A stretch of 64,000 nucleotides of DNA from an uncultured Verrucomicrobiae bacterium (lineage in GTDB: Bacteria > Verrucomicrobiota > Verrucomicrobiia > Chthoniobacterales > Terrimicrobiaceae), in NCBI GenBank assembly GCA_963706955.1, contig CAVPOC010000003.1, positions 192,001-256,000 on the forward strand, in the 5' to 3' direction. Below, in pieces: positions 10,332 to 30,898 of the stretch. Both the position numbers and the translations under genes were made by a program. Position 1 is the stretch's first letter. Every line of letters starts with the position of its first letter. The notes under the pieces were generated by a model, which did no database searches, had not been told where the DNA came from, and saw only the letters and a list, made by a program, of their open reading frames with translations.

Positions 10332-10536
10332 ATGTCAGAAAAGTTTACAAATCTCGTTCATTCCTCACGAGAGGGTCAGAAATGCGAACCAGGTGCCAAC
10401 ACCAATACGGGTTCGCCGCGAAGGCAGTGGCCCGGGCAGGCTAGTCAAGGAGCGTGCCCCAGGGAATCGGATTTCGGTCGTCTTTACAGTTGGTGGGCCG
10501 CTGGTTTACCAGCCTCAGCGCGTCCGCGTCGCCTAA
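10332..10536 (+). CDS. Small protein of the VFTVGGPLVY family (frameshifted copy)
   Basis: MSEKFTNLVH start and RISVVFTVGGPLVYQPQRVRVA end match ORF 30692-30898; 2 nt shorter. Confidence 0.55.
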
Positions 10537-11220
10537 CCAGTAGCAACCATTTCGCCAAAATCCGCGTGCTGCATTGCGTCGCTGGAGCAAGCGCTAGTGC
10601 GGTTATTTTAATATTTTGATGCTCGTGGGTAAGCGCTTGCAGAGGAAAGTCAGATTCACTTCAGATGACTTGTTTGCTGTTGTCTTTGCATCGCGCCGCT
10701 CGTGAATATGTTAAGACTGGCGCTTCAATGCGGCTGCTCCGGCCGACTCGACCTCTCGCAAGCGCGGCTACGCCTGCGGCGACTGCAACGCCGGTCATGA
10801 AGAAAGTCCCGCGGTGACCTATTGGACAGCCAGCGCAGGAGTAGCCGATTAGATGAATGCCGGTCGCATCATTCGGATCAGCCATCACGCCGCACCCTCA
10901 TTGAGGTTGAGGGTGGCTTCTTTATTCACGCGATCACAATCTGCCGGTTGACCGCCGCCGAGAAATATCTCGGACGCTTATCGCCGCTATATGCCGGTCG
11001 CTCTCGGCTCAGATTACCGTTAACGAATCGAGTCCCTTGATGCTCGCCGGGGCAAGAGTGTAATCTCTGGGTAATTGACACCCGATTTTGCACCTTGAGG
11101 AGGCCCGATTTTCGCACAAGAATCTGGACCTGGTGATTCCGAACACGTTCTCGGCGCGTATCAGATCGCCTGGAGCGATGAAAAGGTGCAGATCTGCGAG
11201 CAGCTCCTCATAGAATCGGT

Positions 11221-12237
11221 GTGAAGGTGCCCAAGCCGAGTGGGAGACTCGAACTCGTAGAAGATTGCTTTGGTCACAGCGAGATCGCTGCTGGCGCGTT
11301 GTTTGCCGTTTCGCTTCGCTCTCTCAAACAGTCTCATGAACACGCCCAACCGAACGAGCGCCGCAGCGATCTCCCGTTAGGCCGGCGAGTTGTGGCGGAT
11401 AGCGCTTCGCTTCAATGGAAAGAGCTTTTCGTGCGGCGTTACCGATTTCCGAATGTGGTGGATCGTTTCCTCGTACCCGCAACCCCCGAGCCGTTAATCT
11501 CCTGCAGCCTCGCAGGCTCGGCCGAGTTCCGGGAGCGGGAGATTGGCGAGGCTTGGCTGAAACGGCAGATTGGCCCCGGCTACATTTTCGTCACCCGCTC
11601 AAAGACGCCCTATGAAGTGTGCCACACTTCGCCTGTGGGAGAGGAACTCGAAATTGTTCAGGTCCACATTGCGGTGGATCGCTTCCTTACGGCTTTGGAA
11701 GCTGCGTTTCCCGGCAAGACGGAAGAAGTGGAAGTGATGGACTACGCTGGGCGCGATGAAGCGCTTGCGCATCTTTGCTTTGCGTGCGCCGAGATGCTCT
11801 CAGCACGGACGCCCGGCAAGAGCAGACGCGTCACAGACCTGGCGCAGCTGTTCGCTTCATATCTCGTCGAAAAATACATCACCGCAGCCGCAGAGAAGCC
11901 CGATTTCCACAGTGGCCTGCCAATTTGGCGACTACGCAAAGTGGAGGACTACGTGCGTGAGCGACTCGCTGAAGAGATTTCAACCGAGACGCTCGCGGAG
12001 CTGGTGGAGCTGAGTCCGTTTCACTTTTCTCGTGTGTTCAAGCAGGCGACGGGAATGTCACCACTGCAATTTGTCACGCGCCAGCGGATCACCCGCGCGC
12101 AGCAACTCATCCGCGAAACCTCGCGCACTCTGATCGAAGTCGCCTTGGAGGTCGGCTATACCAGTCCGAGCCATTTCGCGAAAGTCTTTCGGCGCGTGAC
12201 CGGTGTGACACCGACCGAGTTCCGTAGCACCCTCTAA
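11221..12237 (+). CDS. AraC family transcriptional regulator
   Basis: GLPIWRLRKVEDY..LAELVELSPFHFSRVFKQATGMSP..IEVALEVGYTSPSHFAKVFRRVTGVTP double HTH; start uncertain. Confidence 0.93.
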   Translation: MKVPKPSGRLELVEDCFGHSEIAAGALFAVSLRSLKQSHEHAQPNERRSDLPLGRRVVADSASLQWKELFVRRYRFPNVVDRFLVPATPEPLISCSLAGSAEFREREIGEAWLKRQIGPGYIFVTRSKTPYEVCHTSPVGEELEIVQVHIAVDRFLTALEAAFPGKTEEVEVMDYAGRDEALAHLCFACAEMLSARTPGKSRRVTDLAQLFASYLVEKYITAAAEKPDFHSGLPIWRLRKVEDYVRERLAEEISTETLAELVELSPFHFSRVFKQATGMSPLQFVTRQRITRAQQLIRETSRTLIEVALEVGYTSPSHFAKVFRRVTGVTPTEFRSTL

Positions 12238-12260
12238 GGGGTTGGCGCGGTCATTTTATC

Positions 12261-12321
12261 GCAAGAACGCGCTAGGGCGAGCAGGATCGGGCGAGAAGGA
12301 AACGGCGCGATGTCGGATACT
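12261..12321 (+). promoter_or_regulatory. Tandem AraC-type box 2 (class A) plus -10 GATACT
   Basis: GCAAGAAC-N12-GCAGGATC-N27-GATACT, directly after the AraC stop. Confidence 0.75.
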
Positions 12322-12411
12322 GCTGCCGTGCCTGAAACAGCTTCGGCATCGCACTACGAACATCGAACATAGCAAGGGCCGAATCGCTACCAACGTAAAA
12401 GGAGATAAACT

Positions 12412-13047
12412 ATGAAAGGAACTGTTCTCGACGGTCCGCGCGACTTGCGTTTCGAAGAACGCGACGCGCCGACCATCATCGAGACAACCGATGCTAACAT
12501 CAGGCTCTTGGCCACCTGCATGTGCGGTAACGATCTCTGGCCGGACGCGCCAATGGAATCGAGCAAAACTGGGCAGATCAGAAAGGCCAGCGTCGGTTGG
12601 CTTTGCGCCGGCCGGATCGTAACCACTCTGCTCGTCATCGCCTGGTCCGTCCTTTCGGCGGCCCCGACGTGGGCGGCCGACGACACCGAGCAGGTCGTCC
12701 TCACCGCCCACGAGAGACGTCGGGCAGCTACGCTCGCCGGCGATGTCGCCGCGCTCGACTCGATGATGACCGACGATCTCACCTTCATGCACGCGAATGC
12801 GGCGGTGGAGACGAAGGCCGAGTTCCTCGACGCCCTGAAGACCGGCAGGTACAAATACCAGTCGCTCACCGACGAGGAACATCGGGTGCGCGTCCACGGC
12901 GACACCGGGATCGTCTCGGGGACGTGTCGCATCCTTGTGACCGCGTCCGGGAAGGACATCGACATTCGTGTCGGCTTCACCGAACTCTGGGTGAAGGAGC
13001 GCGGAGCCTGGCGGATGGTCCTCTGGCAGGCGACCCAAGTGCCCTAG
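12412..13047 (+). CDS. NTF2-like/DUF4440 secreted protein fused in frame to a Zn-alcohol dehydrogenase N-terminal remnant
   Basis: First ~44 aa match the ADHs at 17478 and 27207; from M at 12553 a signal peptide plus DVAALDSMMTDDLTFMHA..VRVHGDTGIVSG..WRMVLWQAT. Confidence 0.75.
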   Translation: MKGTVLDGPRDLRFEERDAPTIIETTDANIRLLATCMCGNDLWPDAPMESSKTGQIRKASVGWLCAGRIVTTLLVIAWSVLSAAPTWAADDTEQVVLTAHERRRAATLAGDVAALDSMMTDDLTFMHANAAVETKAEFLDALKTGRYKYQSLTDEEHRVRVHGDTGIVSGTCRILVTASGKDIDIRVGFTELWVKERGAWRMVLWQATQVP

Positions 13048-29363: not shown

Positions 29364-29472
29364 CGGCAGGCCCGAGGAAATCGCGTCCGTCGTGCTGTGG
29401 CTTTGCAGCCCGAAGGCGAGCTATGTGGTCGGCCATGCCCTCACCGTGGACGGCGGTTCGACAGTGGGGTGA
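29364..29472 (+). pseudogene. SDR extreme C-terminal remnant
   Basis: [35 protein letters not shown]. Confidence 0.7.
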
Positions 29473-29536
29473 TTCGCGACCTCATCTGGTGATGAAAACT
29501 CTGGCCCGGAAAAACCGAGTGCACGAGACTCCTCGC

Positions 29537-30484
29537 ATGCAGAAACAGAAGGCGAACTACAAACCAAACCAAAATCCGCTCGAAAAGCACGGCTCGTCCA
29601 TGGACCGTCGAAGATTTGTCGTCGCGGGAGTGGAGGTAGGCTTTGGGGTAGTCGCGGGGTCCCTTATGCCAACCGCAACGTCCATCGCGCAAGCCACGTT
29701 GAATCCTCGGAAGGAACAAACTTCGACGTCGTCTCCTTCGAACACCAACCAGACCGCTCGTATCTTCATCACCGGCTCCGCTGACGGGCTTGGACACGCT
29801 GCGGCTAAAACGCTGCTCGCTGACGGATACCAAGTCGTGGTCCATGTTCGCTCTGAGGCTCGGCTCACCGCCGTGCAAGACCTTGTGGATCAGGGAGCCA
29901 TTCCGACAATCGGGGATCTTTCAGACTTCGCGCAGACGAGAGACCTCGCCAGCCAAGTCAATAAGATCGGACAGATGGATGCAGTCATTCATAACGCGGG
30001 TGTTTACTCAGGTCCACAAGTGCTTCCCGTAAACGTCGTTGCTCCCTATCTACTGACGGCGTTAATCCATCGCCCCAAACGGCTGATCTATTTGAGCAGT
30101 GGTATGCACACCGGTGGACGAACAACCCTCATTGGCATGGACTGGACTGGTCGCACTTCCACTGGTTCCTACTCGGACAGCAAGCTTTTCGTGACGACCC
30201 TTGCCGCAGCCGTCGCTCGAATCTGGCCTGACGTTCTCAGCAACTCTGTCGATCCGGGCTGGGTGCCGACCAAAATGGGGGGAGCTAATGCGCCAGATGA
30301 CCTGCGGCTGGGACATCTTACTCAAGAGTGGCTTGCTACTAGCAATGATCCTGAAGCGCTTACGAGCGGAGGGTATTGGCATCATCAACGACGCGCTAAG
30401 CCGCATCCCGCTGTCCACGATACAGAGTTCCAAGCTCAGCTGCTCGACGAACTCGCTCGTGCAACAGGCACTCCGCTGGCATGA
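29537..30484 (+). CDS. Short-chain dehydrogenase/reductase with Tat leader (copy 2, intact)
   Basis: MDRRRFVVAG..SIAQA leader; TGSADGLG, HNAG, YSDSK, DPGWVPTKMGG; start at 29537 or 29600. Confidence 0.9.
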   Translation: MQKQKANYKPNQNPLEKHGSSMDRRRFVVAGVEVGFGVVAGSLMPTATSIAQATLNPRKEQTSTSSPSNTNQTARIFITGSADGLGHAAAKTLLADGYQVVVHVRSEARLTAVQDLVDQGAIPTIGDLSDFAQTRDLASQVNKIGQMDAVIHNAGVYSGPQVLPVNVVAPYLLTALIHRPKRLIYLSSGMHTGGRTTLIGMDWTGRTSTGSYSDSKLFVTTLAAAVARIWPDVLSNSVDPGWVPTKMGGANAPDDLRLGHLTQEWLATSNDPEALTSGGYWHHQRRAKPHPAVHDTEFQAQLLDELARATGTPLA

Positions 30485-30615
30485 TTGATAAGCCTCAAGT
30501 CATATTTGACCATTGGCAGCAAATGTTGGGAATGCGTGACTACGCGCTGCGCATTCGGGCGGAGTTTCATAAAAGTGTCCCCCTAATCAACAGTAAAAGA
30601 GCGCGCCGCTTTTCC

Positions 30616-30676
30616 GCAAGAATGCGACAGGCGTCGCAAGATCCCGAGAGCAGCCACTTGTTCGATGGTCGATCGT
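30616..30676 (+). promoter_or_regulatory. Tandem AraC-type box 8 (class B) plus -10 GATCGT
   Basis: GCAAGAAT-N12-GCAAGATC-N27-GATCGT. Confidence 0.7.
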
Positions 30677-30691
30677 CCCTTCGAAAAACTT

Positions 30692-30898
30692 ATGTCACAG
30701 AAGATTACAGAATTCGTTCATTGCTTTCGACCACTTTGCATATCTCCCGCCCAGGTGAGAGCGTCCGAGGTCCCGCCATCAAGACGGATTAACCGCGCCA
30801 AGCTGCTGGACCAGCGCGCGACGGTGAGTCGGATCTCAATCGTGTTCACTGTTGGTGAGCCGGTGATTTACCAACAGCAGCCCGACCGACTCGCCTAA
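30692..30898 (+). CDS. 68-aa small protein of the VFTVGxPxxY family
   Basis: MSQKITEFVH..RISIVFTVGEPVIYQQQPDRLA; paralogs at 10332 and 17339 differ mainly by synonymous or conservative changes. Confidence 0.6.
   Translation: MSQKITEFVHCFRPLCISPAQVRASEVPPSRRINRAKLLDQRATVSRISIVFTVGEPVIYQQQPDRLA

Follow-up and report, generated by a model that had tools for sequence, protein, structure and literature searches.

Arrest peptides, short nascent chains that hold the ribosome, are thought to arise repeatedly, and their origins are rarely traceable. In uC_KYxIW the essential motif is reported to lie 7-11 residues from the stall site, with proximal residues that are poorly conserved (10.1101/2023.09.02.556018), and for PepNL a hairpin in the tunnel is reported to block termination (PMC11890864). 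Here we describe an 11-residue motif, VVFTVGGPLVY, that recurs three times in a 64,000-nucleotide stretch of an uncultured Verrucomicrobiae bacterium of the Terrimicrobiaceae (contig CAVPOC010000003.1, positions 192,001 to 256,000; hereafter the window). Each copy lies near the end of a short open reading frame (ORF) placed behind an AraC-like box, and we tentatively read this ORF, with a probability of roughly 0.4, as a cis-acting ribosome-arrest leader peptide with a new motif.

As far as the sources describe uC_KYxIW, SecM and PepNL, the element resembles them in being an upstream ORF without annotated function, with a conserved C-terminal motif on a variable front end, about 8 residues from the end. 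Unlike these systems, it has no conserved hairpin over the next start and its front ends come from three genes, and arrest is putative here. Compared with what is described of SecM, MifM and Apd, which are monitoring substrates, the family has no signal peptide or helix, no RAPP-like end and no sec or yidC gene downstream. The TnaC-type Rho-dependent leader needs no hairpin and carries its motif about 10 residues from the stop; unlike that leader, the present element has no proline before the stop, and no C-rich spacer was found here.

The motif copies and their relatives

The three copies, and the nine boxes of one kind that a weight matrix scan places between 10252 and 34244, are as follows.

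10252..10289, plus strand: AraC-like box (direct repeat with a 21-bp period), before copy 1
10332..10536, plus strand: copy 1, MFS-start (short) type, broken; motif frame from GTG 10393, stop 10534-10536
10477..10509, plus strand: motif of copy 1, VVFTVGGPLVY, 8 codons before the stop
12255..12292, plus strand: AraC-like box without a motif ORF
15377, 20328, 26711 and 34244, plus strand: further boxes without a motif ORF
17000..17037, plus strand: AraC-like box before copy 2
17116..17440, plus strand: copy 2, AKR-start type; ATG 17116, frame break near 17199, stop 17438-17440
17339..17371, plus strand: motif of copy 2, VVFTVGGPLVY (identical to copy 1), 22 codons before the stop
25227, minus strand: further box without a motif ORF
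30610..30647, plus strand: AraC-like box before copy 3
30692..30898, plus strand: copy 3, MFS-start (short) type, intact ORF of 68 amino acids (aa)
30839..30871, plus strand: motif variant of copy 3, IVFTVGEPVIY, 8 codons before the stop

The type names refer to front ends that resemble the starts of a major facilitator superfamily (MFS) transporter, an aldo-keto reductase (AKR) or a short-chain dehydrogenase/reductase (SDR). The initial annotation had given the three motif copies at these positions, with the codon differences between them, and our analysis bears this out. A degenerate codon pattern of the motif has three matches in the source genome, none when read backwards, and matches in 3 of 301 genomes of the order; the three-copy occurrence is far above chance.

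A family of about 68 aa shared by the ORFs at 10332 and 30692 had also been proposed, and this does not hold, as copy 3 alone is such an ORF. From ATG 10332 to the motif of copy 1 there are 145 nucleotides (nt; 145 mod 3 = 1), so that this ATG is out of the motif frame and opens a 95-aa frame without the motif; the motif frame itself has no ATG, and GTG 10393 is its sole start behind the box. Relative to three intact relatives, copy 1 lacks 20 nt near 10359, and since Illumina contigs from two runs of two studies span the region with 0 gaps, we take this frame break to be real. In copy 2 the frame from ATG 17116 ends at a stop at 17205, being 2 nt short at 17199 compared with a near-identical relative; the copy holds SDR and MFS remnants and an internal ATG at 17288 (50 aa; GTG in a relative). 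The window product is the sole frameshifted one among 14 informative members of its 90% cluster, and because the other 13 are in frame, the break may be a long-read error.

Protein searches kept 85 out of 3113 candidates, 31 representatives no longer than 192 aa, and 70 out of 8000 candidates of greater length, together 114 distinct related proteins; most come from soil metagenomes and one Verrucomicrobia genus. Scanning with the pattern turned up 7 loci in a species-genome collection and 8 in metagenomes, of which L038 and L041, both from metagenomes, were unrelated chance matches and were dropped. A profile matched 8 of 102 genomes of the family, all of them in the window's genus, and 0 of 400 other genomes of the phylum; the copies were sought in incomplete genomes, where a miss is not an absence. 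Two other genomes hold two intact copies each, and one locus lies in a same-genus genome labelled Terrimicrobiaceae. A block 96-98% identical to positions 17000-17480 of the window occurs at L031 and L032, in a betaproteobacterial and a Chthoniobacterales metagenome-assembled genome (MAG), the betaproteobacterial one being 98% identical to copy 2; this reflects either a recent transfer of the island or misbinning. As first noted, the element belongs to no recognised family: the window copies match none in Pfam or NCBIfam, their best match among PDB sequences has E 0.32, the best in the ESM Atlas reaches 0.76, which is below use, positions 9000-36000 of the window have 0 Rfam matches, and neither the string VFTVGGP nor the element itself was met in the literature listings searched.

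Among 112 proteins anchored on the motif, V10 is kept in 107 and Y11 in 106 of 111, while positions 3-8 are partly forced by the alignment anchor. The stop follows 8 residues after the tyrosine in 54 of the 112. A box precedes the motif by 220-336 nt at 14 of 19 motif sites; of the other five, two are without upstream DNA, L049 and L055 have no box before the motif, and L040 is cut short. The claim that each copy stands directly behind a box thus holds for all three copies and most relatives, with the qualifications that the motif follows only 3 of the 9 boxes and that copy 2 has a different start.

By front end, the 114 proteins fall into 51 SDR-start, 20 MFS-start (the type of copies 1 and 3) and 17 AKR-start forms (the type of copy 2), 3 whole or partial MFS transporters that bear the motif as a tail, and 23 unassigned proteins. 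In 45 full-length SDR-start proteins, a set that leaves out four misfiled in the first class assignment, the upstream part measures 65-73 aa, and consensus residues have a mean frequency of 0.63 there, 0.90 in the motif and 0.53 in the tail.

Selection on the motif and its origin

Purifying selection maintains the motif at the protein level and not at the DNA level, while the front ends drift almost neutrally. Across 19 distinct loci the ratio of nonsynonymous to synonymous change (dN/dS) is 0.09 in the motif and 1.5-4.5 in shifted frames; the antisense frame that shares codon positions with the motif gives 0.14. In Nei-Gojobori counts, pN/pS is 0.71 upstream versus 0.08 in the motif for the SDR-start type (5 loci), and 0.82 versus 0.21 for the short type (5 loci), pS being similar in the two zones (0.36-0.49). 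When the fewest possible changes are counted over 17 loci, the motif has 28 synonymous and 10 nonsynonymous ones, as against 23 and 38 in the preceding 12 codons (p 0.0008). Third positions of the motif codons vary freely, with 20 extra alleles versus 8 at first and 3 at second positions. The purifying selection proposed in the initial annotation is thereby upheld. The conserved microprotein proposed with it is not: the conserved unit is an 11-residue C-terminal motif (about 11-15 residues) on an otherwise disposable short frame of interchangeable debris, and neither the full-length conservation nor the confident fold of a folded small protein was found in alignments and AlphaFold2 predictions.

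These estimates should be interpreted with some caution, as most loci were found via the motif itself, which biases them. The bias is limited, however, because of variants found by DNA likeness, a neutral simulation, and the searches for decayed copies. First, variants of copy 3 recovered by DNA likeness from four runs (a partial list, with codon effects read by hand) carry 5 synonymous changes and 1 I-to-V change in the motif, and 0 and 4 upstream (Fisher p 0.048). Secondly, at the observed divergence only 0.1-5% of neutral lineages would still match the search pattern. Finally, a DNA profile found no decayed copies in the source genome (three matches at E 1.3e-9 or better, the next at 0.12), and front-end-only profiles revealed none among 13 weak matches inspected in 19 genus genomes. 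A front-end-only protein search gave 2 candidates and carries no weight here.

Judged by sequence likeness, the front ends are interchangeable remnants of three genes, namely an SDR, an AKR and a YfcJ-type MFS transporter. The 20-75 residues before the motif derive from the starts of these unrelated genes, mostly with the frame kept, and they resemble the first 63 residues of an SDR (E 4.5e-12 for P0015) and the first 13 of an AKR (9/13 identical). In contrast to PRK08263-type SDRs and AKRs, they are remnants only, far below the family cut-offs, and the glycine-rich motif has decayed in many members. YfcJ/YhhS-type MFS transporters (NCBIfam PRK12382 and PRK05122) are the source of the short-type start, of the segment ALLPIIAVVF and probably of the GxP core; unlike them, the short forms have no transporter body. 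The 12-helix domain of PRK12382 scores above cut-off in P0103 and P0114 only, and the window copies have no match to it. Two named native transporters, of Microvirga and Bradyrhizobium, end soon after the last helix and have no tail. As a source for the tail, an amidohydrolase C-terminus was considered and is not supported; the likeness was visual only, and none of 21 long frames, four PF07969 proteins among them, scored positively against a profile of the tail.

The junction between donors can be followed in three SDR-start::MFS fusions without the motif, in which it reads ALLPIIAVVF, the very residues that lead into the motif of the SDR-start forms. P0115, P0116, P0118 and P0119 carry an SDR start fused ahead of a full MFS transporter. 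For the rest of the motif the best match is FAVGAPV, in the same transporter but 136 residues on; 1.3-4.7% of shuffles and 0-0.5% of 400 background frames score as well. An MFS Gly-Pro motif C has been described in helix 5 (PMC10604125), and in our inferred helix numbering FAVGAPV would sit at its position. The likeness is firm evidence that the residues leading into the motif come from the start of MFS helix 1, and it is suggestive of a helix-5-like segment for the remaining half. A broken transporter gene has probably supplied the pieces from which the motif was assembled. According to this scenario, an SDR start would first have been fused to a YfcJ-type MFS gene. An in-frame deletion of about 136 codons inside the MFS part would then have joined the helix-1 start (ALLPIIAVVF) to the helix-5 segment (FAVGAP), and later deletions between boxes would have exchanged the starts and brought in those of AKR and MFS. 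We infer the in-frame deletion joining both segments to be the simplest origin. The initial annotation had named as counter-evidence a motif that maps to a fragment of a known larger protein, or homologs that lose the frame and the synonymous bias, and such counter-evidence is partly at hand: the motif traces to YfcJ-type MFS fragments, and 15 of 173 proteins lose the frame or end inside the motif.

A possible arrest leader and its alternatives

The proposal that the element is a leader peptide survives as the best reading, albeit at the modest probability given above. It is favored because a start and a frame are needed while the front end is free, because the distance to the stop is nearly fixed in half of the family, and because the ORF comes first behind a regulated promoter. 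The last point, the position of a regulatory leader as the first small ORF upstream of a regulated gene, was judged by box positions on DNA; the combination of a variable front end with a C-terminal motif kept at the protein level is likewise found. AraC presumably binds the boxes with which it is co-located, and the boxes are presumed to drive transcripts. AraC would then induce the transcript and a ribosome would translate the leader; at the stop codon the motif, 9-19 residues from the peptidyl-transferase centre, would hold the ribosome, and the pause would alter the output of the gene that follows, be it for an oxidoreductase, a cupin or AraC. Since neither a conserved hairpin nor a conserved spacing is present, we propose a context-free route for this effect, such as shielding from Rho or from decay. 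A more far-reaching version is unlikely, namely that any start behind an AraC box (SDR, AKR or MFS) captures an arrest motif born at a helix junction, which would serve as a portable second, ligand-sensing ribosomal switch for an aldehyde/electrophile detoxification regulon.

Several results speak against an arrest leader. No element that would couple it to the next gene (a hairpin over the start, a terminator or a C-rich Rho site) was found. RNA beyond the stop shows no conserved structure (-1.8 kcal/mol for the consensus; z between -2.1 and +0.8 across 10 loci), and 9 loci show no C-over-G bias. The next gene lies 25 to about 800 nt away with no fixed spacing, and tail length ranges from 5 to more than 26 among the motif sites compared. 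The leader is missing behind 6 of the 9 boxes, some of these before paralogous dehydrogenases. In addition, two of the three window copies are out of frame with their own ATG, their motif nonetheless perfect, and Shine-Dalgarno sequences before the short-type ATG are weak or absent. Variation among close relatives points the same way: within 90% clusters the motif is not significantly less variable, with 4 extra alleles in 50 columns, than the front end, with 42 in 288 (p 0.17), in one cluster the proline is altered in 6 of 12 members and the frame shifted in 3, and 36 of 173 proteins show a motif change or break (15 frameshifted or cut, 21 with a one-site change). Selection on the motif is thus real over long times and loose within populations. 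A hairpin over the stop codon is seen in three loci and not in the consensus, and a terminator-like site at 10580 after copy 1 is within chance. Three RNA-labelled runs contained only 4-8% of the words, which speaks neither for nor against translation.

A somewhat improbable alternative is a trans-acting small protein whose sole working part is the short motif, binding a partner (AraC in a feedback, or an island enzyme), with the front end as a passive carrier. It predicts the same selection pattern, and an element indifferent to the spacing and structure downstream is no less expected of a peptide acting in trans than of one acting in cis. Moreover, 7 of the 8 genus genomes with a motif match also hold this AraC (E 1e-40 or better), the exception, G006, having a decayed copy only, and a leader peptide acting in trans has been reported (PMC7298713). 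However, no stable fold is predicted (AlphaFold2, pLDDT 58.5, pTM 0.18), and the several copies per genome with unrelated front ends, together with the fusion to a 12-helix transporter, suggest that the released product matters little.

We regard it as unlikely that the element is MFS/SDR debris with little or no function, a weakly selected relic that was carried along when promoters were duplicated and whose conservation is an artefact of the way it was found. The islands are full of chimeric remnants, every piece is traceable to known genes, and the frameshifted, cut or changed motifs, the non-significant within-cluster test and the discovery of most loci by the motif itself would all be expected; the stop-free front end is weak evidence (p 0.02-0.13). 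Yet a neutral detectability of 0.1-5% predicts a large pool of decayed copies, of which neither the source genome nor the 13 weak genus matches held any, and the DNA-likeness variants show the same synonymous bias.

Lower still in probability is a membrane-anchoring or degradation signal derived from transporter helices and kept to dispose of or localise the product. Its hydrophobic composition, its origin in transmembrane segments and a final alanine in 50 of 99 proteins are compatible with such a role, but in the window copies hydropathy over 19 residues peaks at only 0.6-1.4, charged residues are frequent just ahead of the motif (E in position -1, R in position -3), and signals of this sort do not usually require T, G, P and Y to be conserved so exactly. 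That the supposed peptide is in truth a DNA or RNA element is very improbable: the copies do lie in regulatory regions and some codons are uneven, but third positions are free to vary, Rfam has no match, and no promoter consensus was found near copies 1 and 3.

The surrounding island and what the motif may mean

The island encodes AraC, AKRs, zinc dehydrogenases, SDRs, cupins, CMD and cyclophilin-like proteins. The genes closest to the motif copies are listed here.

11221..12237, plus strand: AraC-family regulator, probable start ATG 11336, 5' end disrupted in the assembly
17478..18659, plus strand: zinc-dependent dehydrogenase, first gene after copy 2, 37 nt after its stop
31242..31637, plus strand: cupin, first gene after copy 3, 343 nt after its stop

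From ATG 11336 the AraC frame (11336-11390) meets a stop at codon 15 and lacks 1 nt that is present in the contigs of all four runs; this may mean a damaged regulator in the source strain or a misassembly. The 195 nt just before the AraC start (within 11143-11339) are skipped by contigs of two runs. The zinc dehydrogenase at 17478-18659 is apparently frameshifted near its end; it forms a paralogous pair with 27207-28223, as do the SDRs at 13201-13986 and 29423-30484. Directly behind a box, at 12412-13047, a zinc dehydrogenase start is fused in frame to a SnoaL/DUF4440 domain, a promoter-start chimera without the motif. Behind the boxes at 15377, 26711 and 34244 we see, by eye, 5' regions like those of SDR- or AKR-start leaders and other debris, again without the motif. 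Two more box-like sites (G000:C3:127061 and 129186) lie 65 kb before the window.

In conclusion, if the arrest reading is true, the leader would tune the detoxification genes behind it, by a known kind of action with a new motif and an unusual, traceable origin. It would then represent a traceable birth of a bacterial arrest peptide with its ancestors and intermediates extant: metagenomes still contain the donor genes and the SDR::MFS intermediate as well as the derived forms, which makes the step of functional gain open to comparison. Even without ribosome stalling, the family shows clearly that selection has settled on 11 residues of what was gene debris.

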